Assembly (NCBI GenBank): GCA_964344655.1
Contig: CAYFOF010000001.1
Span: 3,907 to 67,906, forward strand
Reading direction: 5' to 3'
Length of the DNA: 64,000 bases
DNA from: Candidatus Woesearchaeota archaeon
GTDB lineage: Archaea; Nanobdellota; Nanobdellia; SCGC-AAA011-G17; PNOQ01
In this document: positions 3,563-61,646 of the stretch, piece after piece
How the letters are laid out: every line of letters begins with the position of its first letter
Position numbering within the stretch: the first letter of the stretch is position 1
Notes under the pieces: model-generated
Database searches by the model: none
Told to the model about the DNA's origin: nothing
Seen by the model: the letters and a program-made list of their open reading frames with translations, nothing else
Program-made: the position numbers and the translations under genes

Positions 3563-6141
3563 TCAAATAAAATAGAAGGTTTTCCCGGCATTGCTTTTTG
3601 ATCGTCTTTCTTTATTTCTATTTTCAAATTAAACTCTTTTTTTAATTTTTCAGTGTTTGTTTTAAGCTCATTTAATTCTTTTTCTTGAGTTAAGACTATT
3701 TCAGGAAGTTTTTTTGGATTTTTTATAAAAGAAGGCACTAATTTAGAAATTTCTTTTGCGTGTTGTTTTATCATTACTTTCTTTATTATTCTTGAAATGT
3801 CGAAATCTTTTTCCATTTCTTTTTTAATTTTTTTAATTAATTCATATTTCCAAGATTCTGAAACCGAAATTGTAACCTTAGTTGGTTTTTTCTTTACGAA
3901 TTTAGAAATATTATGAATATCTTTTATTGTATTTGAAATAAATTCATCTAGAGCATCCAATTCTGGGTTAATTTTCTTTTCATCGTGCTTTGGCCATTTA
4001 GAAAGTGAAATTAAATCTTTATTTATTTTAGACCAAAGCTCTTCTGCTAAATGTGGACAGAATGGAGAAATTAATTTTAATGCGGATTCAAAATCTTTTT
4101 TTGAGATTTCTTCTTCTAGAGAATCAAATAATTTTTTAATTTCTATTATTGCTAAATTATATTTTATTTCTTCTAGGTATTGTGTTACTTTTTTTATTGC
4201 GTTATTTATTTTATGTTGTGTTTTTTTAGAAGATTTTCCAATTTTGAATTTTTTATCATATACTCTTGAAACAAATTTATGATTGCTTTCTAGTCCCCGT
4301 GTGTCCCAGTTGAAATCTTTATCAGGGTTTGCAACAGAAACTAAAAACATTCTTAGAGCATCTGTGCTGTAGTTTTTTATCATATCTAATGGATCTATTA
4401 CGTTTCCATAAGATTTTGACATTTTTCTTCCATCTTCAGCGTGAACCATTCCTTGATTGAATTGTTTTATTGCGGGTTCATTGAAGCTTAATAGTTTTAA
4501 ATCTCTCAAGAACTTAGTATAGAATCTTATGTAGATTAAATGCATACATGCGTGTTCTCTTCCCCCAATGTAGAAATCTACAGGACACCAATATTTTGCT
4601 TTAGTTTTGTCAAATATTGCTTTTGAATTTTTTGGATCTGTGTATCTTAGGAAATACCAAGAAGAATTTACGAAAGTATCCATTGTATCTGTTTCTCGTT
4701 TTGCTTGACCTTTACATTTTGGACATTTTACATTTACAAAGTCTTTATGTTTTTCTAGTGGATTTTCTCCTTCTTTTAATTTTACATCTTCTGGAAGTTT
4801 AACTGGAAGATTTTTTTCAGGAATCTCTCCGCATTTTTCACAGTGTATTATTGGAATTGGGGTTCCCCAGAATCTTTGTCTGGAAATTAACCAGTCTTTT
4901 AATCTGTAATTTATAGTTTTTTTACCTAGTTTTAATTTTGTTAGATGTTTTGTTATTTCTTCTTTTGCTTTTTCTGAATCTAATTTATTGAATTTATCAG
5001 AATTAACTAGAATTCCTTTTTCTATGTAAGCGTGTTTCATATCTTTTTCATTTAGTGTTTTATTTTCTGGGGATATTACAACTTTTATTGGGATTTTGTA
5101 TTTTCTAGCAAATTCAAAATCTCTTTGATCGTGAGCAGGAACTGCCATTACCATTCCAGAGCCGTATGAAGCAAGAACGAAATTTCCAGCATAAATCGGA
5201 AGTTTTTCTTTTGTTAACGGATGAGTTGCATAAGATCCTGTGAAAACTCCTTCTTTTTCTAGTTTATCTATGTCTTCTTCTGAGACTGAAGTTAATTTTT
5301 CTGTGAATTTTTCTATTTCTTCTTCTTGTTTTTCAGTAACTAGGTTCATTAAGTCTGGATGTTGAGCTGAAACCACTAAGAATGTTACTCCATATAATGT
5401 ATCTGGGCGTGTTGTGAAAACTTTCCATTTCTTTTTATTTATTTCAAAATTAATTTCTGTTCCATAAGATTTTCCAATCCAATTTTTTTGAAGTTTTTTA
5501 ATTTCTTCCGGCCAATCTTTTAATTTTTTTATTCCTTCATATAACTCGTCTGCGTATTCTGTTGTTTTAAGGAACCATTGGTTAAGGTTTTTTACTTGTA
5601 CGGTTGTATCTTCATGCCTCCAACATTTTCCATCATGAACTTGTTCATTTGCCAATACAGTATTACATTTTGGGCACCAATTAACTGGAGCTTCTTTTTT
5701 GTAAGCTAAACCTTTTTTGTACATTTGTAAGAAAATCCATTGATCCCATTTGTAATAGTCTGGGTTTGATGTTGAGATTAATCTAGACCAATCATAAGAG
5801 AAACCTAATTTTTTTTGTTGCTTTATGAAATTTTTAATTGCTTCTTCTGTGAATTTTTTTGGGTGTTCTTTTGCTTTTATTGCAGCGTTTTCTGCTGGAA
5901 GCCCAAAAGAATCGTATCCAACTGGATAAAGAACGTTAAAATTATTCATTCTCTTAAATCTTGCAATGATATCTGTTATTGTGAAATTAAATGCGTGTCC
6001 TATGTGTAATCCTGAACCTGAAGGATATGGAAACATCTCTAATGCGTAGAATTTCTTTTTTGTTGATTTTTTTACTTCAAAGGCTTTGGTTTTTTCCCAC
6101 TTATCCTGCCATTTTTGTTCTATTGCTTTGAAGTCTGTCAT
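3559..6141 (-). CDS. leuS: leucyl-tRNA synthetase, bacterial type
   Basis: MFPYPSGSGLHIGH, GYDWSR, VNWCP...TVLANEQV, NWIG and KMSKS motifs, colinear with bacterial LeuRS. Confidence 0.85.
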   Translation of the reverse strand: MTDFKAIEQKWQDKWEKTKAFEVKKSTKKKFYALEMFPYPSGSGLHIGHAFNFTITDIIARFKRMNNFNVLYPVGYDSFGLPAENAAIKAKEHPKKFTEEAIKNFIKQQKKLGFSYDWSRLISTSNPDYYKWDQWIFLQMYKKGLAYKKEAPVNWCPKCNTVLANEQVHDGKCWRHEDTTVQVKNLNQWFLKTTEYADELYEGIKKLKDWPEEIKKLQKNWIGKSYGTEINFEINKKKWKVFTTRPDTLYGVTFLVVSAQHPDLMNLVTEKQEEEIEKFTEKLTSVSEEDIDKLEKEGVFTGSYATHPLTKEKLPIYAGNFVLASYGSGMVMAVPAHDQRDFEFARKYKIPIKVVISPENKTLNEKDMKHAYIEKGILVNSDKFNKLDSEKAKEEITKHLTKLKLGKKTINYRLKDWLISRQRFWGTPIPIIHCEKCGEIPEKNLPVKLPEDVKLKEGENPLEKHKDFVNVKCPKCKGQAKRETDTMDTFVNSSWYFLRYTDPKNSKAIFDKTKAKYWCPVDFYIGGREHACMHLIYIRFYTKFLRDLKLLSFNEPAIKQFNQGMVHAEDGRKMSKSYGNVIDPLDMIKNYSTDALRMFLVSVANPDKDFNWDTRGLESNHKFVSRVYDKKFKIGKSSKKTQHKINNAIKKVTQYLEEIKYNLAIIEIKKLFDSLEEEISKKDFESALKLISPFCPHLAEELWSKINKDLISLSKWPKHDEKKINPELDALDEFISNTIKDIHNISKFVKKKPTKVTISVSESWKYELIKKIKKEMEKDFDISRIIKKVMIKQHAKEISKLVPSFIKNPKKLPEIVLTQEKELNELKTNTEKLKKEFNLKIEIKKDDQKAMPGKPSILFD

Positions 6142-6407: not shown

Positions 6408-6704
6408 TTGTTTAAAATTCTGATTTTTATGGGAGAAAATAATCAAGAAAGTTTTTTAGAAAATCATAGAAGAATTGAAAATCTTATCGGAAAGGATAAA
6501 AAGGATTTTATTCCAATTTGGGGCATTTGGAATTATCATAGAAGAGCTTGGCCAATTATAAAGAATGAGCCCATTGTAGAGAATGAAAATGATGATCTTT
6601 ATTTTGGATATGATGGTTTGTTTTTTCTAACACATATTGCATATTGCATACCCGCTATTGCCTCATCAGCATATATAATCCTAAAGCATTATGTAAATAA
6701 TTAA
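6408..6704 (+). CDS. hypothetical protein
   Basis: ORF only; no recognisable motif. Confidence 0.3.
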   Translation: MFKILIFMGENNQESFLENHRRIENLIGKDKKDFIPIWGIWNYHRRAWPIIKNEPIVENENDDLYFGYDGLFFLTHIAYCIPAIASSAYIILKHYVNN

Positions 6705-7594
6705 ACTCTAAAGGTTCCACGTTTTTTTAATTTTTTATTATTTTTATTTTTTCTTCTGTAGATAAAAAATCCTACTGCAGCAATTATTACTGCAAATATT
6801 AAATAAGTCCCAGTTCTATCTGGAGCTGTGTTTCCTAAAGAATCTATGAAATACGTTGGATCGTAATAAACTAATTTTTCTATAGTTCTTCTTTCATTTG
6901 TAGAATCAGTATAGTGTAAGATTACTTTTATGTTCCCTTCTGAAGGTGTTGCTTCAAAATCTGCAGTTGTATATTCGTTTGAATCTAAATCACCAACAAT
7001 ATTTCTATTTGCTCCTTTAACAACTATATTTTCTTGTTTTGGGATTTCTACTGTTAATGCTTCAATATCTTGATTTCCAGTATTTAGAATTTCAAAAACT
7101 AAACTCCTATCTTTTATTATGTGGTTATCTACGTAAACTTCAAAGTCGGTTCTTCCGTCTTCTAGTTCGATATCAAATTTTTTGGAAATGTAGCTTCCGA
7201 GTCCAAGATTATCTCTTTCTCTGTATCTTAGTTCTACTTCATATGTTCCTTCTAAAGCATCAGGGTCTATTCTTACTTTGTAAGGAATATTCCAGTTTGA
7301 ATTAAACCCATGTCCAGCGTATGTATTTGCTTCCATTACTTTAATTGAACTTCCACTATCTAAGAAAAATGGATATTCTAAAACTAATTCAACAATAGCA
7401 CCACTATCACAACTTCCTAGCCCTCTAAGTTGGAATAACATTTCTACATACTCTCCTGCTATCGCTGGGTGAGGATCTTGATTTACCAAATCTGCAGCCA
7501 ATTCACAATTATAAAAGTCATTTGCAGAAGTATTGTTTATTAGAAATATAAATAAAACAAATACAAAAATTAATTTTATAAATCGCCCCTCCAT
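6701..7594 (-). CDS. secreted CARDB-like surface protein with C-terminal TM helix and basic tail
   Basis: N-terminal signal peptide; beta-rich repeats with GEYVE...GTYEVEL pattern; C-terminus LIFAVIIAAVGFFIYRRKNK. Confidence 0.5.
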   Translation of the reverse strand: MEGRFIKLIFVFVLFIFLINNTSANDFYNCELAADLVNQDPHPAIAGEYVEMLFQLRGLGSCDSGAIVELVLEYPFFLDSGSSIKVMEANTYAGHGFNSNWNIPYKVRIDPDALEGTYEVELRYRERDNLGLGSYISKKFDIELEDGRTDFEVYVDNHIIKDRSLVFEILNTGNQDIEALTVEIPKQENIVVKGANRNIVGDLDSNEYTTADFEATPSEGNIKVILHYTDSTNERRTIEKLVYYDPTYFIDSLGNTAPDRTGTYLIFAVIIAAVGFFIYRRKNKNNKKLKKRGTFRV

Positions 7595-7632
7595 GAATTA
7601 AATTTTATTTTCTCCATATATAAATGTTTTTA

Positions 7633-8841
7633 CTATTCACTTCTTAACGCATCTACGGGGTTTGTTTTTGCGGCCCTTCTTGCAGGTAATGCTCCAGATA
7701 TTGCGCCAGTAATTCCTGCGAATGCAATTAATCCTACAAATAAATATATTGAAAAGTGAGGTTGTAAGAAACTCCATCCAAGATCTTTTAGTATTAAACC
7801 ACCAATACTAGAAATCCCCCAACCCAGTGCACAACCCAATACTCCAGCAACAACACCTAAAAATGAACTTTCAAATAAGAATATATCAAATATTTCTATG
7901 TTTTTTGCTCCTACGGCTTTTAATATTCCAATCTCTTTATATCTTTCTAGAACTGAAGTTATCATTGTATTTGCTGTGTTTATTGTTGAAACTAAAACAG
8001 AAATTAATGCTATTAGTACTATAAATCCCACAATAACATTTAGAGCACCTGAAAATTGTTCTATTAATTCATCAAATGATTGTACTGTGAAATCTTCTTT
8101 TCCCTCTTCTACATCTCTTGATTTTCTTAGGCTTTTTTCTATGTCATCTACAACTCTTTGTATGTTATCTAGGTCTACTCTTGCAAAAATTTGTATGTAA
8201 GAATTTTCTTCTGGGAATAGTTCTTCGTAGTAATCATTTGTAACATAAATTTGAGAGTCATCTTGAGGGTTTCCAATTTCTTCTAAAAATCCGATTATTC
8301 TTAGATCTTGACCGTTTACTTCTATTTTATCATTTACTTTGAAGGGTTTTGGGAAAATTTTGTTTGGGATTAAATAATTGTATCCAAGAAGTATTTTTCC
8401 ATCATCTCCTGGGCTTAAGATTCTTCCTTCTTTAGCACCAACATTAAATGAATCTAAAACCATATCTTTTTTTGGATCGTAGGAAATTAAGAAAACAAAT
8501 TTTATATCGCTATTTTGTTTTATTTGTACTGCGTTAAAATATAATCCTGTTGCATCATAAACTCCGGGTGTTTTTGATACGGAATCTATGTCTGATTGGT
8601 TTAATACTACACTTGTTGAAAGGTCTGCCACTCCTCCTGCGGTTTTTGCCATGATTAAAACTTTGTCTGCAGATGACGAAGTTGAGAGTTCATCTATGTA
8701 ATCATATAATCCTAAACCAAAACTTATGAAGATAAATATTGTTGCAATTCCAACTAAAATAGAGAAAATTGTTAAAAAACTTCTACCTTTGTTTTTCTTT
8801 AGATTTTTTAGTGAGTATTTCACTCCTTCTCTACTTATCAT
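7633..8841 (-). CDS. ABC transporter permease, FtsX/MacB family
   Basis: N-terminal TM, large extracytoplasmic domain, three C-terminal TM helices typical of the FtsX fold. Confidence 0.7.
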   Translation of the reverse strand: MISREGVKYSLKNLKKNKGRSFLTIFSILVGIATIFIFISFGLGLYDYIDELSTSSSADKVLIMAKTAGGVADLSTSVVLNQSDIDSVSKTPGVYDATGLYFNAVQIKQNSDIKFVFLISYDPKKDMVLDSFNVGAKEGRILSPGDDGKILLGYNYLIPNKIFPKPFKVNDKIEVNGQDLRIIGFLEEIGNPQDDSQIYVTNDYYEELFPEENSYIQIFARVDLDNIQRVVDDIEKSLRKSRDVEEGKEDFTVQSFDELIEQFSGALNVIVGFIVLIALISVLVSTINTANTMITSVLERYKEIGILKAVGAKNIEIFDIFLFESSFLGVVAGVLGCALGWGISSIGGLILKDLGWSFLQPHFSIYLFVGLIAFAGITGAISGALPARRAAKTNPVDALRSE

Positions 8842-10061
8842 CCTCTTAGGGCCTCCACAGGATTTTGACTTGCCGCCTTCATTGCAGGAATTATTCCAGC
8901 TATTCCTCCAATTAAGAAGCTTCCAAATAAAGCTAGGAATATTAATCCGAAGTCTATGCTAAATCCTAAATCTGTTCCTATGAAATTATTAATTCCTTGT
9001 ATTCCAATTAAACCAATTATTATCCCCAGGAATGCTCCGGCTGCTCCTCCAATTAATCCTAGTAAGCTTGATTCTACAAAAAATTGTGCAAATATGTGTT
9101 CGTTTCTTGCACCGACAGATTTTGTTACTCCGATTTCTTTTCTTCTCTCCATTACAGATGTTGTCATTGTATTTATTATTCCGATTAAACCAATGAAAAT
9201 AGAAATTGAGGCAACTATAACTATGAATATTTGAACTCCACTTAGAACGCTATTTACAGTAGCTAGAGAGGATTCAGGTGTACTTACTTCGAAATTTTCT
9301 TCTCCTAATTTTACATCTCTTCTTTGTCTTAAAAGTTTTTCAATGTCTGTTTTTGTTTTGTTTATTTCTTTTTTATTATTTGGTTCTACTATGATTAAAT
9401 CTGCAACTTCTCCAAAATTAAATATATCATCCATGTCATCTTCTAGCATTAGTATAACATTATCCATAATTAAACTGCCTTGTTTTTCCATTATACCAAT
9501 TACTTCGAATTTTTCTCCGCTAACTAAAATAGATTTCCCTACGGTTATTGGTTTTCCTCCCCAATCTTCTTCTTTATCGTAATAATTAAATCCTAGAACT
9601 ACTTTTCCAGTGTCGGATTCTTTTAGCATTCTTCCAAATAAAGGTCCTTGATCAAGTTGAGTGTATATTAGATCAAGATCTTCCTTATTTTGAGCCATAC
9701 TTCCGAGATACCTAAATTGAATATTATCATTAAATTCTATTTGTCCGGACCTTATGTTTCTGACTACTGTATTTTCTACGCTGCTTAATCTTTCAATTGC
9801 TCTTGCATCATCTCTTGTTATTGGATCTACAACACTGCTTCCAGGAGGGCCAAATCCAGAGATTCCTCCAGCTTGGACAGTTATTAATTCGTTAGCATTT
9901 ATTCCAAATTGACTTGCTACTGCGAGTTGTAAACCATTTCCTAAGGATATTAAAGAAACTACGGCAGTTACACCAATTACGATTCCTAACAAAGTTAACC
10001 AAGATCTAATTCCTCTACTTTTTAGATTCTTTAAAGCTAAAACAAAGAAGTCTTTAATCAT
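8838..10061 (-). CDS. ABC transporter permease, FtsX/MacB family (second copy)
   Basis: Same architecture as the neighbouring permease; 4-bp overlaps imply an operon. Confidence 0.7.
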   Translation of the reverse strand: MIKDFFVLALKNLKSRGIRSWLTLLGIVIGVTAVVSLISLGNGLQLAVASQFGINANELITVQAGGISGFGPPGSSVVDPITRDDARAIERLSSVENTVVRNIRSGQIEFNDNIQFRYLGSMAQNKEDLDLIYTQLDQGPLFGRMLKESDTGKVVLGFNYYDKEEDWGGKPITVGKSILVSGEKFEVIGIMEKQGSLIMDNVILMLEDDMDDIFNFGEVADLIIVEPNNKKEINKTKTDIEKLLRQRRDVKLGEENFEVSTPESSLATVNSVLSGVQIFIVIVASISIFIGLIGIINTMTTSVMERRKEIGVTKSVGARNEHIFAQFFVESSLLGLIGGAAGAFLGIIIGLIGIQGINNFIGTDLGFSIDFGLIFLALFGSFLIGGIAGIIPAMKAASQNPVEALRG

Positions 10062-10782
10062 TCTTTTTCTTACCTCTGCCGTTTGGTTTTTTGGTTATTT
10101 TTTCTATTTTCCCGTCTCTTAACCAATAAACAATATCAGGGTAATTTTTTATTAAATCAGTATCATGAGTTACCATAACAATGGTTTTGCCTTTTTTGTG
10201 TAAATCTTCTAGGAAATCCATTACGTTTTCTCCAGTTTTTGTATCTAGATTTCCTGTTGGTTCATCTGCAAGAATAACTTCTGGAGAATTTGATAATGCT
10301 CTTGCAATTGCTACTCTTTGTTGTTGGCCACCAGAAAGTTCGTTTGGGGCATGATGTTTTCTTTCTTTTAAATCTACTAATTGCATTAATTTGTCTGCTC
10401 TAAAATTTCTCTCTCCGGTGTCGTACCCTTGGAATATCATAGGAATCATTACATTTTCCTTTGCAGTTAAATTATTTATTAGATTAAATGATTGGAAGAT
10501 AAATCCTATTTTTTGTCCACGTATTTGAGCTAGATCAGATTCGCTTAAAGTTGAAATATCTTGATTGTCTAAGAGAATTTTCCCTCTTGTTGGTACGTCT
10601 AAGGATCCAATTAAATTCATCATTGTTGATTTTCCGGAGCCAGAAGGTCCGAGAATTGCAACGAAATCTCCCTCTCTTATTTGTAATGAAACTCCATCTA
10701 CTGCCCTAACAATGTTGTGGCCCATGTGATAGTGTTTGTAGACGTTTTTTAATTCAATAATCACTCTTCTTTCTTCTTTCAT
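10054..10782 (-). CDS. ABC transporter ATP-binding protein (MacB/LolD-like)
   Basis: Walker [10 protein letters not shown], signature [15 protein letters not shown], Walker [12 protein letters not shown]. Confidence 0.85.
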
Positions 10783-11843
10783 TGTTTTATGTTTCCTTTT
10801 GTACTAAATTGTATTCCTTTATCTTTCTTTTTTTGAGAAATATAATCGTAAAATTCTTTGTAAGTCATTACTTTTGCTCCATCATTCTTTACATGTTGTA
10901 AAAATAAATCTAAGTCATCTAATTTTGCTTGTGTGTCGAATGTATTTGGGTGCAGTTGTAGGATGAAAAGATTATCTTCTTCATATTCATCTATCCATTC
11001 TTCATAAGGAGTGTGTAAAAAATTAATAGAGTGCCAGCCATAAACGTAAATTGGATCATAACCTCTTGGAGTAATTATTACATCTGAATCGAAATAGGGT
11101 TTTGAAACATGAGTGTTTCCGATTAATTTGAATCCTGCCTTTCTAACATTTTCATATTGTTCCGTGGTCCAATGATTTCCTGGAGGAAAGTAAGATGTAA
11201 ATTGCATATTGAAAATTGTTTCAAGCTCTCTTTTTCCATTGTAAACATTAAACCAGACTTCTTCATATTTGGGGCAATGATATTCATTTCTGCAATGATT
11301 GTATCCGTGCATACCAAGTTCATAACCTTCTTCTAACAGAGATTTTAAATAATCAATCATTTCTTGATCTCCACTTATATGCATATTCTCTTTTGTTGAT
11401 TCATCAAAAATATAAGGAGTTACACCGAGAGTTGCTTTGAATCCGTATTTGCTTATAATATCTGTTACAGGAATGAACTTATCTAAGGTATATCCATACT
11501 TTTCATAGTATTCTACGTCTTCCATGTTCCAATAATCATCTAATTCAATTATCATTATTTTTTCATCTATCTCTATTGAGGTTGATTTGTCTAGGGCATA
11601 TATTGCATATCTTGTTCCAGAATAGATTACAACTAAAATTAATAAAATAATTAATAATGTTTTGAATATTTGTTTATTTTTATTTTTTGTAAATTTGGCC
11701 ACTTTTCTCCAAAACTCTACATCTGCTTTTTTTCTTACTATAAATAACAGAATTACTAATATTATTATTAATGCAAAAATATAACCTAGAACATCATAAT
11801 ACAATTCACTTAATGTTAAATTTCCTGGAAGTAATCCTACCAT
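10779..11843 (-). CDS. membrane-anchored polysaccharide deacetylase-like (CE4/NodB-like) protein
   Basis: N-terminal TM; ELDDYW and LGMHGYNH resemble NodB motifs 1 and 2; first gene of the ABC operon. Confidence 0.35.
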   Translation of the reverse strand: MVGLLPGNLTLSELYYDVLGYIFALIIILVILLFIVRKKADVEFWRKVAKFTKNKNKQIFKTLLIILLILVVIYSGTRYAIYALDKSTSIEIDEKIMIIELDDYWNMEDVEYYEKYGYTLDKFIPVTDIISKYGFKATLGVTPYIFDESTKENMHISGDQEMIDYLKSLLEEGYELGMHGYNHCRNEYHCPKYEEVWFNVYNGKRELETIFNMQFTSYFPPGNHWTTEQYENVRKAGFKLIGNTHVSKPYFDSDVIITPRGYDPIYVYGWHSINFLHTPYEEWIDEYEEDNLFILQLHPNTFDTQAKLDDLDLFLQHVKNDGAKVMTYKEFYDYISQKKKDKGIQFSTKGNIKQ

Positions 11844-11946: not shown

Positions 11947-12575
11947 TTGTGTATGATTTTTAATGTTATATCCAGAAAAGAAAATCTTCTTGAAAAATTT
12001 TATGAAAAATCTATGCAAGAATTAAAAGAATTTTTTGGGATAAATTGGATATATAACAAGCCCAAGGTTTTTTTGGTTCCTAACAGGAAAACTATCAATA
12101 TGTTAAAAGATGGCGATTCTCCGGCGTGGAGTGTTGGTTGGGTTAATGGAAAGGACGTTTACTTATTGGATAAAAATAGTTTTGAAAAAGAAAGTTCTCA
12201 TGCCTATTCTGATGAAAAATATTTTTTTCTTATGAAACATGAATTAGCTCACGCATATACATGATATTGACTAAAAATGTTAGGCCTCCTGTTTGGTTAT
12301 GGGAGGGACTAGCCGTTTATATTTCTGGCCAAATAAAAAATAAAAAAATTCCCGATAAATTTGGAAAATTTTTAGATTATTATGATAAACATGATGCCAT
12401 CGTTTATAGTGAAGCTTGTTTTGCTGTAAAAAATTTGGTGGAAAAATATGGAAAAGAAAAACTTCTTAATTTAGTTAAGGCAACAAAAGAATATAATTCG
12501 AATTCTGGATTTAAAAAGAAATTCAAAGAAATATATGGTTTTAACTTAAATTATAAAAATATATTAAAAAAATAA
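11947..12575 (+). pseudogene. gluzincin-type zinc metallopeptidase split into two ORFs (11947..12264 and 12261..12575) sharing an ATGA junction
   Basis: HELAH ends ORF1; the conserved Glu ligand (WEGLAVY) lies about 18 residues later in ORF2 in a different frame. Confidence 0.35.
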
Positions 12576-12583
12576 GAAAAAAG

Positions 12584-14272
12584 TTATTTCCTTTTCTTAA
12601 AGAAAAGAGAAAGGAAATAGATTATTATAACGATTAAAGCTATATCGCCAACGATCCAGAATACTGTTTTTGCTGTTTCACTTTCGAAAACATTTCCAAC
12701 AGTCCATCCCGTAGGCAGGAATACTGTTCCGCTAGTTTCTTCGTTAGATTCACCAGCTAAACTATCTGTTGATTCTGTTTCTTCAGTTTCTTCAGATTCT
12801 GAAACTAAACATCCATTAACAGTTATTTTTTCTACGTAATTTTTTTGTTCACCCAAATCATCGTAGTAAAGAGTGAATGTTAATGCATATTCTTTGTTTT
12901 TCATTCCTTCTGGAATAGTAGCTTCTAGATATACAGTGTTATCATCATCTCGATCATCGTATCTTTCTAAATCGAATGTGTCAGAGAATACATCAATTCC
13001 AAGTTCTGAATTGTACATTCTTACTTTTACTGCATCGTCATCTTTATCTCCAACGTTTTGTACATCAACTTCTGCGTTGAAAAGATATCCACATGAAACT
13101 ACAGATGGATTAACCAAAATACTTTCAATTATTACTTTGTGATCTGGTCTTTCAACATCTATTTCTTCTATATCTTCTATACATTGGTGATCATCGTTTC
13201 TGTATTCGTAAGCTTTAACGTGAACTTCGTATGTTCCGTCATCCCAATCATCTTCAACTTCTATTTCAAATGAAAAGGTTTCCACTTCATCTTCATCTAT
13301 ATCAGTTTTTGAGCTTTTTTCACTCTCTAACTTTCTATCATCTCCACGTTCTGTTACCCAAACTTCTACGATTACATCATCGATATCTTCGTTATCAGTA
13401 TTTTCAATTTCAACATCTATTTGGATTATATCTCCTTGAGCAAATTCATCGTCATTTATATCGAATTCTTCAATTCTTAATTGACCTACATCGCAAAGAT
13501 CGGATTCATCCAAAATATCGAAATCTTTTACTTTAACATCACGTTGATTTAATTCATCATCAGTTTTGTAAGCTTTTGTGTATAGATTGTAATTGTGATC
13601 TGGATCTAAATTATCATCTACATCTAATGAAACTGAAAATGTTTCTTCTATTCCATCATCAATTGTTTGATCGTAGGAATCTGCAAAAGCAACAATTTGT
13701 TTTAAGTTTTCATCGTATAACCAAACTTCTACTCTTACATCAGTTAGATCTGCGGATCCATCATTTTCAACATCTAGATCAATTTCTAGGATATTTCCTG
13801 CTCTCATTTGATCTGGAATATCGTCATATGAATCTGTATCAATGATATTTAAGTCACCAACACTTCCCACATATTGATCTACGAATACTGTAGCAAGAAT
13901 TGTTGTTTGTGTTGTGTTTTCAGTTATAGTAATTGTTGATTCATATTCTCCCATTCTTGTAGAAAGAGGAACATTTACTGTTGCAGTTGTATCTGCTGAA
14001 TCATTTGCAGGCACATCTACAGTACTTGGATCAAACGTTACTGTTCCATCAAACAAATATGTGCTTATGAATGCATTAGTGTATGTAAAATCACTTGCAG
14101 AAAGCACGGTACCAGTTACAGCTGTTGCATCTGGATTTGTTAATGTTATTGTGGCATTTCCTGATTCGCCTTGACTTACAGTTCCAAAATCAACTGGATT
14201 TGCACTCAAGTCAGCGTTTGCTAGCGTAGCTGATAGAATCAAAAACATTGCCATAAATATTAATTTTTTCAT
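12584..14272 (-). CDS. acidic secreted surface protein with three CARDB-like repeats and a C-terminal TM plus KKRK tail
   Basis: Signal peptide MKKLIFMAMFLILSATLANA; repeated V-EVW/V-V-Y modules; very D/E-rich; C-terminus IALIVIIIYFLSLFFKKRK. Confidence 0.6.
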   Translation of the reverse strand: MKKLIFMAMFLILSATLANADLSANPVDFGTVSQGESGNATITLTNPDATAVTGTVLSASDFTYTNAFISTYLFDGTVTFDPSTVDVPANDSADTTATVNVPLSTRMGEYESTITITENTTQTTILATVFVDQYVGSVGDLNIIDTDSYDDIPDQMRAGNILEIDLDVENDGSADLTDVRVEVWLYDENLKQIVAFADSYDQTIDDGIEETFSVSLDVDDNLDPDHNYNLYTKAYKTDDELNQRDVKVKDFDILDESDLCDVGQLRIEEFDINDDEFAQGDIIQIDVEIENTDNEDIDDVIVEVWVTERGDDRKLESEKSSKTDIDEDEVETFSFEIEVEDDWDDGTYEVHVKAYEYRNDDHQCIEDIEEIDVERPDHKVIIESILVNPSVVSCGYLFNAEVDVQNVGDKDDDAVKVRMYNSELGIDVFSDTFDLERYDDRDDDNTVYLEATIPEGMKNKEYALTFTLYYDDLGEQKNYVEKITVNGCLVSESEETEETESTDSLAGESNEETSGTVFLPTGWTVGNVFESETAKTVFWIVGDIALIVIIIYFLSLFFKKRK

Positions 14273-14355
14273 CTTTTATCCTCCAAAATTATAATTTTGT
14301 TACACTTCTAGAGTTGTAAATTGATTTATAAATCTTACTAAAGCTTATAAATTAG

Positions 14356-14886
14356 TTGAAATTTAGTGGAATTATGAAATATTACTGGAGTTTAAGTTTT
14401 CGTTTGTTTATTGCAGTTATTTTTACTGTTTTTTATGATGTTTTTTACTCAATTATTTATCCCTTGACAGTTTATCCAGCTTATTTTTTTACTAATTTGT
14501 TTTATGGTGCTTATTTAGTTGGAAATTCTATTTTTGTTTCTGGGAATGTTGTGAATATTATCCCTGCTTGTGTTGCGGGAATTGCTTATTCATTATTATT
14601 GTTTTTAATATTATTTACTAAAGGGATTAGTTTTGGAAAAGGTTTGAAAATGTTTGTTGTTGGAAGTTTGTTAATTTTAGTTATGAATGTTTTACGTATT
14701 GATTTATTGATTTATGTTTTAGTTGAGTTTGGATCTGATTTATTTGATAAAGTGCATTTAGTATTTTGGAATTTTATTTCTGGGTTGTATGTTGCTTTTG
14801 TTTGGATATTTTTAGTTAAGAAGTTTAGAGTTTCTTCTATTCCTATTGTTTCAGATGTTAAGTATTTATATACTTCTATAAAGTAG
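14356..14886 (+). CDS. minimal exosortase/archaeosortase-family membrane protein (candidate transpeptidase)
   Basis: Polytopic membrane protein; PACVAGIAY resembles the catalytic ACSG(I/L)R Cys motif and NVLRI the conserved NxxR motif of EpsH/ArtA enzymes. Confidence 0.4.
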   Translation: MKFSGIMKYYWSLSFRLFIAVIFTVFYDVFYSIIYPLTVYPAYFFTNLFYGAYLVGNSIFVSGNVVNIIPACVAGIAYSLLLFLILFTKGISFGKGLKMFVVGSLLILVMNVLRIDLLIYVLVEFGSDLFDKVHLVFWNFISGLYVAFVWIFLVKKFRVSSIPIVSDVKYLYTSIK

Positions 14887-14932: not shown

Positions 14933-15874
14933 ATGTATAATTCATTATATGATGCTTTGGAAAGGATTTATCCTGAATGGAATGGAAAAAACATTCCAGA
15001 AGATTTCAGGAAAGGAATGTCCAATCTAGAGAATTTACTAAAAAATTTAGAAGAATTACATGAAATGCCCTTGATTATTGAAGAGGGATTAACTCCCTTT
15101 GAAATTTCTAATATTTTAGGATTTGGAAGAAAAGATGCAAAAGAAAAGGGGAATTTAAGATCATATGATACAGTCCATAGGGAAGTGAAAAATGGTATAA
15201 ATTGGATTTTAACTCCTGCCAGAATTATTACATTAGCATTAGAATATAAACAACAAGTAGCAGATCCTGTAGTGGCGCAAGATTTATTATTAGATTCTAT
15301 TGATTTTGCTTTGGGAGTTTATCAAAATCCTGATTTAGTTTTAGAAAGTACTGGGCAATTTAGAGAAAGAATATTAGAGAAAAATTCAATGATGTTGTTT
15401 CACCATCATTCATTTAATACAGATGGTGTTTCTATGCATGCTTATCAACCTAGAAATTCACGTTCAACAGTAGAAACATTATTATCTTTAACTGATGGGA
15501 ATCCAGTCACTTTTATTGCAATAGCAAATGGGGGTGTTCCGGCAGGGATGGACGTTTTTTTAAGGTATAGGGATGAAATTTTATCTCCTGATGGCCTTAC
15601 TTTTTACTCAACAAAACTATCTTGCTATAAAGACGGGAGAGTAGGGAAAAAAAGACCAAAAATAAAACCTTGGGAAATCAGAAATTTACATGAAATCACT
15701 GGTGCGAAACCAATTGTTCTTTTTGATGAAGATGTTAATTCTGGTGAAACATTGGCTAGGGCTAGAGATTTTTTTAGGAAATACTTTCCAGAGAATAAAA
15801 TAATTGTTGAGACAAATATGGGTAGTCCGGACGAGGTAGATTATTTTTCTAAATCTAAAAGATTGTCTATGTAA
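14933..15874 (+). CDS. protein with C-terminal type I phosphoribosyltransferase domain and uncharacterised N-terminal domain
   Basis: PRPP-binding motif IVLFDEDVNSGETL; N-terminal ~150 aa without recognisable motif. Confidence 0.5.
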   Translation: MYNSLYDALERIYPEWNGKNIPEDFRKGMSNLENLLKNLEELHEMPLIIEEGLTPFEISNILGFGRKDAKEKGNLRSYDTVHREVKNGINWILTPARIITLALEYKQQVADPVVAQDLLLDSIDFALGVYQNPDLVLESTGQFRERILEKNSMMLFHHHSFNTDGVSMHAYQPRNSRSTVETLLSLTDGNPVTFIAIANGGVPAGMDVFLRYRDEILSPDGLTFYSTKLSCYKDGRVGKKRPKIKPWEIRNLHEITGAKPIVLFDEDVNSGETLARARDFFRKYFPENKIIVETNMGSPDEVDYFSKSKRLSM

Positions 15875-60206: not shown

Positions 60207-61646
60207 ATGAAACAAACAAAATTCACTAAAATTATAGCATTATTTGCAATTTTCTTAATCTTATTAAATTCAGTTTCTGCGTTAAAGATAGAAACAAGTC
60301 AACCAAATGACGCAAAACAAGGAAATAATGTTTATTTTGACGTAGGAATTGCATTATCAAGAGAAGAGATGATACAATTGACAAATGAAGATATTTTTAT
60401 TAGACATACTAAATTAACTATTACAGGTCCAAATGGATTTGATAAAACATGTTTAATAAAAGAAGGACACTTAATAGATTGTGATTTAGATCTTGAAGTA
60501 AAAGAAATTAGATCACCAACTACTGGTTCTCAAGAGAGTAATGATATTATTTATCAATTTTCTTGGAATACTCCAAATGGCATTGCAACAGGAACATATA
60601 ATGTAAACTTAGAATTATATTTAGCAGAAGCAATTGATGCTCAATATTCTTACTGTGATATGTTAGTTGGAAGATACCAAGCATTAGTAAATTTCGATTC
60701 TACTACACTATTTGATTCAGATTTAGATTTGAATGAAGATGGTTTAATTAATTTAGAAGATTTAGTTGTTTTCCAAGACAATCCATTGTATAGACAAGAT
60801 GGAGAATTATTTGGAAGATTTGAAGGATATTTTATGTTGATTAAAGAATACAATTCATATAATCCATTATTGGATTTAAATGGTGATGGAATAATTAACT
60901 TATCTGACATAGTATTGCTAGCTCAAGAATTAGAAAATAAGAAACTAGATTTGAATGGCGATGGTGTTGAAGATCTTTCAGATATTATATTACTTTCACA
61001 ACATTTCAAAGAAGGTAACTTAGAGTTAGATTGGAATGAGGATGGTATTGTAGACCTTAGTGATGTTGTATTGGTTGTTCAGTACGTTGAAAGTGGAAAT
61101 TTAGAATTTGATTTGAATCAAGATGGAGTTTTTGATTTAAGTGATGTTATAATTATTTCACAAAGTTTGAATCCTAATTTTACAACTGAATATGAAAAGT
61201 CATTAGATTTAACTGGAGATGAGATTTTAAATCTTTCAGATCTTGCTGTATTGGCTCAAAATATTCAAGGTTCATTTGAACCAGAAGATTTGAATGGTGA
61301 TGGCGTAATTGATTTAACAGAAACTATCATTGCTGCAGGAAATGCTAAGAATGAAGAATGGTGTGCAATGCAGTTAGAAAAGATAGATGGTCGTGTTGAA
61401 TTATTTAACGCAGATGAAAAATCTTTTGAAATAACTAAAAGATCTACAGGCGGAAATTCTGGTGGAAACAGCAGAAATTATGAAGATGAATTTGTAGATT
61501 ATGATTCAGGTGAAGAGTATGAAGGAACTTATACCCCAGAAAATGAATCAGGTTATAAAATGAATAGCATATGGATGTTAATCTTCTATGTACTTGCAAT
61601 AATTGTTGCAATATTCATTATAGTTAAAGTTGTAAAAAAACTTTAA
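60207..61646 (+). CDS. secreted protein with seven tandem dockerin-like (EF-hand Ca-binding) repeats and a C-terminal TM plus basic tail
   Basis: Signal peptide; repeats DLNEDGLINLEDL, DLNGDGIINLSDIVLLAQ, DLNGDGVEDLSDIILLSQ, DWNEDGIVDLSDVVLVVQ, DLNQDGVFDLSDVIIISQ, DLTGDEILNLSDLAVLAQ, DLNGDGVIDLTETIIAA; C-terminus MLIFYVLAIIVAIFIIVKVVKKL. Confidence 0.6.
   Translation: MKQTKFTKIIALFAIFLILLNSVSALKIETSQPNDAKQGNNVYFDVGIALSREEMIQLTNEDIFIRHTKLTITGPNGFDKTCLIKEGHLIDCDLDLEVKEIRSPTTGSQESNDIIYQFSWNTPNGIATGTYNVNLELYLAEAIDAQYSYCDMLVGRYQALVNFDSTTLFDSDLDLNEDGLINLEDLVVFQDNPLYRQDGELFGRFEGYFMLIKEYNSYNPLLDLNGDGIINLSDIVLLAQELENKKLDLNGDGVEDLSDIILLSQHFKEGNLELDWNEDGIVDLSDVVLVVQYVESGNLEFDLNQDGVFDLSDVIIISQSLNPNFTTEYEKSLDLTGDEILNLSDLAVLAQNIQGSFEPEDLNGDGVIDLTETIIAAGNAKNEEWCAMQLEKIDGRVELFNADEKSFEITKRSTGGNSGGNSRNYEDEFVDYDSGEEYEGTYTPENESGYKMNSIWMLIFYVLAIIVAIFIIVKVVKKL
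60717..61337 (+). repeat. coding tandem repeat array of about 81 nt units (seven dockerin-like modules)
   Basis: Repeated gat-ttr-aat-gRn-gat-ggn DNA units visible from about 60720 to 61330. Confidence 0.5.

Follow-up and report, generated by a model that had tools for sequence, protein, structure and literature searches.

Does the small membrane protein encoded back to back with an acidic surface protein on a woesearchaeotal contig process that neighbor, and if so, what marks the neighbor as its target? We addressed this question in a stretch of 64,000 nucleotides from Candidatus Woesearchaeota archaeon (positions 3,907 to 67,906 of contig CAYFOF010000001.1, assembly GCA_964344655.1), called the window here and numbered from its first letter. 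DPANN archaea, the lineage concerned, are tiny, mostly uncultured and often host-attached, and almost nothing is known of how they build their cell surface. Our analysis indicates that the small protein is very probably a pacearchaeosortase, a minimal polytopic cysteine transpeptidase of the exosortase/archaeosortase family, and that its dedicated substrate is most likely the divergently encoded acidic surface protein of 562 amino acids (aa). The system itself is already known. The models NF033505 and NF033506 are curated at NCBIfam, and names assigned from both by the Prokaryotic Genome Annotation Pipeline (PGAP) are already carried by relatives (database proteins P0051, P0053, P0081 and P0101). 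The window therefore adds a divergent, back-to-back member and a sharper description of the tail motif, not a new kind of system. The pair would nevertheless be a compact model for recognition and cleavage, combining an enzyme of 170 aa with one substrate whose tail motif is sharply defined.

Both open reading frames (ORFs) were found where an earlier, sequence-only reading of the window had placed them:

12584..14272, - strand: gene of the probable cognate substrate, a 562-aa secreted acidic protein of the PACE-CTERM-PROT ("putative S-layer protein") family, NF033506
14374..14886, + strand: gene of the probable pacearchaeosortase, 170 aa, with NF033505 and TIGR04178 matches and an identical database protein, P0001

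The sequence-only reading had started the smaller gene at TTG 14356, which gave 176 aa and a spacer of 83 bp. The reading frame held, but the start, the length and the spacer did not. The true start is almost certainly ATG 14374, since the 170-aa product is identical to P0001 and all homologs begin MKYY..., and the TTG proposed by the ORF finder is probably not a start codon. The intergenic spacer is therefore 101 bp.

In a scan of NCBIfam, the small protein matched NF033505 ("pacearchaeosortase") with 132.7 bits against a cutoff of 80 (E 1.3e-38). The alignment is full-length, with residues 12-175 of the 176-aa ORF on profile positions 3-166 of 167. The core signature of exosortases and archaeosortases, TIGR04178, was matched with 36.6 bits against a cutoff of 23 (E 4.2e-09), with residues 66-153 of the 176-aa ORF on profile positions 1-92 of 97. 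TIGR04178 was one of two profiles proposed earlier for checking the enzyme call, and the match above its cutoff bears that call out. Matches to ArtD (TIGR04175, 21.4 bits, cutoff 125), ArtE (TIGR04124, 28.4 bits, cutoff 95) and XrtR (NF012138, 15.1 bits, cutoff 150) were all sub-threshold, and the ArtA model was not among the NCBIfam matches at E ≤ 10. ArtD, ArtE and XrtR share the size class (profiles of 150-160 positions) and the conserved core with the window sortase and give weak full-length alignments with it. However, the window sortase falls far below their cutoffs, as a separate subfamily with a different cognate signal.

The length of the protein, described earlier as about half the usual one, turned out to be unremarkable. 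A database search returned 79 homologs, nearly all of about 155-195 aa and some already named "pacearchaeosortase" by NCBI, and the pacearchaeosortase, ArtD, ArtE and XrtR profiles span 150-167 positions. Judged by these profiles and homologs, about 170 aa is normal among minimal archaeosortase subfamilies. ArtA is roughly twice as long. One contig of a metagenome-assembled genome (MAG) carries two tandem, overlapping pacearchaeosortase paralogs (L018:215-772(+) and L018:762-1298(+); L numbers denote genomic loci).

The exosortase/archaeosortase superfamily, in the TIGR04178/InterPro description, has a conserved Cys, an Arg within an NxxR motif and a His at the extracytoplasmic ends of three successive transmembrane (TM) helices. 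The segments PACVAGIAY and NVLRI had been singled out as the likely Cys and NxxR motifs, and an alignment of homologs with identity to the window protein down to 33% agrees. Cys66, Asn105, Arg108 and His128, numbered in the 170-aa protein, are invariant in 37/37 homologs, and Arg10, Thr32 and Trp132 are likewise invariant. The predicted catalytic positions are encoded as follows:

14569..14571, + strand: codon of Cys66, the predicted catalytic nucleophile, in the motif PACVAG at the predicted outer end of helix 64-80
14686..14697, + strand: codons of Asn105-Val-Leu-Arg108, the NxxR motif, in helix 87-119
14755..14757, + strand: codon of His128, at the predicted outer end of helix 121-150, after the acidic, Lys/Arg-poor loop 118-127

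Structure prediction with AlphaFold2 (AF2) gave a confident model of the sortase, with a predicted local distance difference test score (pLDDT) of 92.6 and a predicted template modeling score (pTM) of 0.83. It consists of helices 2-19, 21-44, 64-80, 87-119, 121-150 and 159-168 and a three-strand meander at residues 47-61. Averaged over the alignment, Lys plus Arg residues number 4.6 in the N-terminus, 3.7 in loop 81-92 and 8.1 in the C-terminus (residue 149 to the end), which places these parts on the cytoplasmic side. The corresponding means of 0.7 for residues 45-63 and 0.5 for loop 118-127 place those segments outside. Cys66 is thus predicted at the outer leaflet, because the flanking loop 81-92 is rich in Lys and Arg and so cytoplasmic. 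By the positive-inside rule and the modeled helix boundaries, Cys66, Arg108 and His128 all lie toward the extracytoplasmic ends of three successive helices.

Gene order is one basis for the assignment of the substrate. We compared 23 genomic loci encoding sortase relatives, all from DPANN MAGs labeled Woesearchaeota, Nanoarchaeota or Nanoarchaeia. A member of the surface-protein family stands upstream on the opposite strand in 19/20 loci whose upstream flank spans 2.5 kb or more, and never more than one occurs per locus. At the nine closest loci, the surface-protein gene directly adjoins the sortase gene with a spacer of 102-124 bp. The distant, NCBI-named pacearchaeosortases P0053 and P0051 are encoded just downstream of NF033506 proteins (555 and 409 bits, respectively), in the same direction. 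Together with the NF033505 and NF033506 matches in the window, this conserved pairing upholds the earlier proposal that the divergent acidic protein is the cognate partner of the sortase.

Some loci depart from this simple layout. In one sortase subclade (L011:4356-5927(-), also L012 and L014), the immediate divergent neighbor encodes a 523-aa membrane sensor with HAMP, DUF835 and winged-helix domains. In L011 and L012 the surface protein is encoded 4-5 kb further upstream, and its tail in L012 is different (...SLMMAILILLLLIIGVILLIKQI). Between the surface protein and the sortase, four of the more distant loci encode a small PAP2-family membrane phosphatase (PF01569, 52-65 bits; L015:5401-5925(-), L016:2021-2581(-), L020:4524-4880(-) and L021:5439-5948(-)). 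Its gene immediately precedes that of the sortase in L015, L016 and L021, and a single gene separates the two in L020. No PAP2 gene of that kind was found in the window or in the flanks of L001-L014.

The 562-aa protein matched NF033506 ("PACE-CTERM-PROT, putative S-layer protein") with 152.5 bits against a cutoff of 110 in the NCBIfam scan. The match falls in two stretches, the best of which places residues 271-475 on profile positions 237-457 of 627. As reported before, the protein is highly acidic, with an isoelectric point of 4.05 and 23.7% Asp plus Glu, rising to as much as 39% in its second repeat. Its orthologs P0081-P0096 have the same size and 28-88% identity in the alignment, and one of them is NCBI-named "putative S-layer protein". 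The following parts were delimited upstream of its tail:

14213..14272, - strand: Sec-type signal peptide MKKLIFMAMFLILSATLANA, residues 1-20, read from the sequence as a hydrophobic segment (AF2 helix 2-17), with predicted cleavage after ANA
12818..13867, - strand: three CARDB-like beta-sandwich repeats, R1 136-265, R2 266-380 and R3 381-485, supported by repeat z-scores and AF2 strands

The three CARDB-like repeats noted earlier were recovered by comparison with shuffled sequences (z = 13.5 for R1 and R2, 3.7 for R1 and R3, and 4.7 for R2 and R3). The CARDB Pfam match itself is sub-threshold (16.8 against 22.7 bits), that of NPCBM_assoc is above threshold (27.7 against 24.4 bits), and DUF4832 and WxLIP gave weak matches in the repeat region. 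The AF2 model (pLDDT 81.5) contains four beta-sandwich domains, a disordered segment of low pLDDT at residues 490-531 and a C-terminal helix at 532-561. An Ig-like N-terminal domain, unrelated to the three repeats, precedes them. Foldseek of this model returned only generic strings of Ig/MG-like domains (HYDIN, alpha-2-macroglobulin and complement), and no specific S-layer relative was found by it. Three genes downstream of distant pacearchaeosortases, a 794-aa protein (L024:8319-10700(-) and L027:8170-10554(-)) has a weak or faint match to PF05124 (S_layer_C), no C-terminal TM helix and no NCBIfam match. This 794-aa protein may be the real S-layer protein, which would question the "putative S-layer protein" label of NF033506.

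What marks the acidic protein as a target appears to lie at its extreme C-terminus. The tail reads ...GTV-FLPTGW-TVGNVFESETAK-TV-FWIVGD-IALIVIIIYFLSLFF-KKRK, and the linker (acidic, with Ser, Thr and Glu), the TM helix and the KKRK end recognized in the sequence-only reading are all present:

12704..12721, - strand: FLPTGW, residues 518-523, the conserved upstream part of the signal, within the disordered linker; 12 residues separate it from the TM region and 14 from FWIVGD
12599..12667, - strand: C-terminal TM helix, residues 536-558, opening with FWIVGD (residues 538-543; 12644-12661)
12587..12598, - strand: basic cluster KKRK, residues 559-562, kept as [KR]3-4 in orthologs

Among 16 orthologs, Pro520, Thr521, Phe538, Trp539, Leu546 and Phe553 are invariant, and in the wider family the upstream element is semi-conserved as [FY]-x-P-T-[GS]. 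A profile built from the tail only (55 positions) was searched exhaustively with HMMER against 1.84 billion representative proteins and gave 95 matches at E ≤ 0.001, of which 20 reached E ≤ 1e-10. Almost all of them lie at the extreme C-terminus, and FWI[IL]GD recurs in most of the 95 as the core of the signal. The ectodomain of this same family is present in 68/71 matching proteins of at least 400 aa. When the tail profile was run against all ATG-initiated ORFs of 60 aa or more in the window and the 23 loci, the sortase-associated protein was the only match in each locus. An earlier word-indexed database search with a 13-sequence tail alignment had returned 202 candidates, none significant, and was uninformative, given that the exhaustive search later gave 95 matches. 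Since the tail matches are confined to one protein family, the signal is specific to that family, and the arrangement looks, from its sequences, like a one-enzyme, one-substrate system.

As had been stated before, the tail contains neither a PGF nor a PEP motif. The further claim that the sorting signal would be of a new type stands only in that respect, for its carrier family is already curated as PACE-CTERM-PROT. Core NF033506 members end in ...N-x-x-[LI]-W-[IV]-I-[GA]-x-x-N-V...R-I-S-R-R. When the two tail classes are aligned by their basic clusters, both have a Trp 19-20 residues ahead of the first basic one, with a small residue at W+3 and a polar Asp or Asn in the first helix turns. The window proteins resemble the core pacearchaeosortase/PACE-CTERM-PROT pairs in scoring above both cutoffs, in belonging to the DPANN lineage and in their one-to-one neighborhood. 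They differ from them in gene orientation (back to back, whereas core members are co-directional), in the NF033506 score (152 bits against 409-555) and in the tail. By these sequence comparisons, the window pair is a divergent branch of that system.

Our analysis shows family membership, catalytic residues that are invariant and face outward in the predicted topology, a recurrent pairing of the two genes and a tail motif confined to one protein family. Cleavage of the substrate by the sortase and transfer to an acceptor are inferred by analogy with the ArtA/PGF-CTERM system of Haloferax. In the proposed sequence of events, the substrate would leave the cell through Sec, and its C-terminal helix would retain it in the membrane for a time, with KKRK staying in the cytoplasm. 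The sortase would recognize the FWIxGD start of this helix and probably also FLPTGW, 14 residues upstream. The Cys66/Arg108/His128 site at the outer leaflet would then remove the helix and the basic tail through an acyl-enzyme intermediate on Cys66. The new C-terminus would be passed to an acceptor in the envelope, such as a membrane lipid, and the ectodomain with its four beta-sandwich domains would thereby become fixed on the surface. To our knowledge, ArtA of Haloferax is the only enzyme for which anchoring of the archaeosortase type has been demonstrated by experiment.

The comparison with ArtA is close in several respects. ArtA of H. volcanii, for which Cys173, Arg214 and Arg253 are critical by mutagenesis (PMC9263693), cleaves a signal made of a motif, a TM segment and basic residues and needs Cys173 and Arg214 for this (PMC9263693; PMC7157517). 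The window sortase is likewise a polytopic enzyme with a conserved Cys and Arg, and their spacing is nearly the same (41 for Cys173/Arg214 in ArtA, 42 for Cys66/Arg108 here). The substrates also share the tripartite signal of motif, TM and basic residues, and in both systems a major envelope-type protein is the substrate (PMC9263693; PMC7157517). The two systems differ in that the PGF motif is not in the window tail and in that ArtA serves several substrates, with nine PGF proteins in H. volcanii (PMC6098224). Sortase A of Gram-positive bacteria, also a Cys transpeptidase acting on a motif, a TM segment and a basic tail, offers a further parallel through the LPTG-like string within FLPTGW. There is, however, no homology between the enzymes, and FLPTGW lacks the X of LPXTG, is separated from the TM region by 12 residues and shows only partial conservation across the wider family. 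Its likeness to LPXTG may be coincidental.

Several observations weigh against reading the pair as a sortase and its substrate. PF09721 (Exosortase_EpsH), the other profile proposed for checking the enzyme, did not match the sortase, and neither did any Pfam family at E ≤ 10. Because more than 20 of the homologs carry a precomputed PF09721 match, this miss reflects model sensitivity and does not amount to exclusion. Foldseek of the sortase model against the PDB gave nothing at E ≤ 0.001, a sequence profile run against the PDB gave nothing, and no solved relative was found by either. The last 75 residues of the window substrate, taken by themselves, had no NF033506 match at E ≤ 1, and our literature search found no paper describing the pacearchaeosortase/PACE-CTERM system. 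The third critical residue of ArtA, Arg253, has no obvious invariant counterpart in the window sortase, which has the invariant His128 in its place. The lipid-anchoring partners of ArtA, PssA and PssD, were not seen near the window locus, and DPANN archaea may be without lipid enzymes of this type. No acceptor candidate was found among the window genes scanned, a minority of the window ORFs. Finally, some members of the surface-protein family have a long conserved cytoplasmic extension after the TM helix (e.g., ...GGKRKKDKKMADFEAE...), which comprises 25-35 residues (...GGKRKK.KKMADFEAE...) in P0152, P0154, P0158, P0160, P0180, P0182, P0187 and P0193. Such conserved extensions would not be expected if the C-terminal peptide were merely cut off and lost.

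Long conserved cytoplasmic tails would instead suit a retained anchor. The C-terminal helix would then be a permanent type-I anchor, and the sortase-like neighbor would act elsewhere or shed the protein by hydrolysis without lipid transfer. Also in favor of this explanation, cleavage and transfer by the sortase are predictions, and for H. volcanii it was uncertain if a small part of the S-layer glycoprotein remains TM-anchored (PMC6098224). However, a passive anchor would hardly account for the strict one-to-one pairing or for a family-specific intramembrane FWIxGD with a conserved Asp or Asn in the helix, and the catalytic residues of the sortase are invariant. We therefore regard a permanent anchor as unlikely. 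The short length, the missing PF09721 match and the lack of a clear Arg253 counterpart could also be taken as signs of a degenerate or non-catalytic archaeosortase remnant, which might, for instance, serve the surface protein as a scaffold or chaperone. This is scarcely credible for a protein whose Cys, NxxR and His do not vary among 37 diverse homologs, which retains the full TIGR04178 core, whose fold is predicted with high confidence and whose size is normal for ArtD, ArtE and XrtR.

A sortase with several substrates was considered as well, since ArtA and XrtA are many-substrate enzymes and the genome was covered for 64 kb only. The sequence-only reading had nominated two further window proteins, of 297 aa (6701..7594) and 479 aa (60207..61646). 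Each has a hydrophobic segment at the N-terminus, a TM helix at the C-terminus and basic residues, and could be served through a loose signal of this kind. Neither shares the signal by any sequence criterion. The sortase-adjacent proteins from which the tail profile was built score 103-118 bits with it, but the 479-aa protein reached 5.3 bits (E = 0.67) and the 297-aa protein gave no match. NF033506 matched neither of the two. The 297-aa protein does not end in FIYRRKNK, as had been described. Its sequence runs 13 residues further, ...NNKKLKKRGTFRV. Its orthologs are always encoded at the end of a MacB-like ATP-binding cassette (ABC) transporter cluster and have in common a conserved cytoplasmic tail of 20 residues with KF[ED]I at its end, in keeping with an ordinary type-I membrane protein. 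The 479-aa protein (+ strand) is a secreted protein with multiple dockerin type I/EF-hand-like calcium-binding repeats (PF00404, 54.3 bits) and a C-terminal TM anchor. Tail profile, NF033506 scan, ABC-cluster context and dockerin identity thus speak against both proteins as co-substrates. With the tail matches among 1.84 billion proteins confined to one family, a multi-substrate enzyme is very improbable. As a separate observation, the presence of dockerin repeats points to surface assemblies of the cohesin-dockerin type in this DPANN archaeon.

The pacearchaeosortase reading could be carried further, to a more speculative proposal that we hold to be doubtful. The pair might be the most reduced C-terminal sorting machine known, with an enzyme of about 170 aa devoted to one envelope protein in genome-reduced DPANN archaea. 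Its signal would then be bipartite, comprising FWIxGD, whose Asp may pair with Arg108, and an upstream scissile site [FY]-L-P-T-G convergent with LPXTG. The acceptor could be a lipid, possibly host-derived. A lipid acceptor is hinted at because the PAP2 lipid phosphatases adjoin the sortase in four distant loci. In Methanosarcina, artA and pssA are syntenic, and the PAP2 neighbor may be a comparable lipid link.

The presumed control region shared by the two genes is itself conserved and contains the following elements:

14273..14373, no strand assigned: divergent 101-bp control region between the substrate and sortase starts
14280-14284, - strand: GGAGG Shine-Dalgarno sequence of the substrate gene (CCTCC on the + strand), conserved before the substrate ATG
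14297-14321, no strand assigned: conserved 25-nt block TTGTTACACTTCTAGAGTTGTAAAT, between the TATA-like box and the substrate Shine-Dalgarno sequence, with the inverted repeat TTACA-N10-TGTAA
14325-14332, no strand assigned: palindromic TATA-like box TTTATAAA, conserved
14344-14352, no strand assigned: second TATA-like box CTTATAAAT, its center about 26 nt from the sortase ATG

These elements are invariant or nearly so in 8 aligned loci whose sortases are about 50-78% identical, and the 25-nt block is kept across loci whose proteins are about 50-60% identical. The arrangement suggests two back-to-back promoters and, because the second TATA-like box lies about 26 nt from the sortase ATG, a leaderless sortase mRNA. 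The 25-nt block could be a regulator binding site or an element of the 5' untranslated region.

Convergent with the substrate gene, 11947..12264 and 12261..12575 (both +, with an ATGA overlap) are seemingly one split Peptidase_MA_2 gene. The product of the former ends ...HELAHAYT (HExxH), and that of the latter matches the C-terminal part of PF13485 (33.8 bits). The split may reflect a frameshift, a pseudogene or an error in sequencing, and the gene is absent from L001, the closest relative. On the other side, a gene at 14933..15874 (+) is inserted between the sortase and a conserved downstream Sm_multidrug_ex gene and is absent at that position in L001-L010. Its product of 313 aa matches a phosphoribosyltransferase domain below threshold (PF00156, 21.2 against 26.3 bits). 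The co-directional cluster at 6701..10782 (-) comprises an ABC ATPase, two FtsX-type (MacB-like) permeases and the 297-aa CARDB-like type-I membrane protein. It is conserved directly downstream of the substrate gene and occurs also in L002, L003, L007, L008, L010 and L023. In the window and in L001, a DUF2334/polysaccharide-deacetylase gene (10779..11843 in the window) lies between the substrate gene and the ABC cluster. The transporter cluster may have a functional link to the surface protein.

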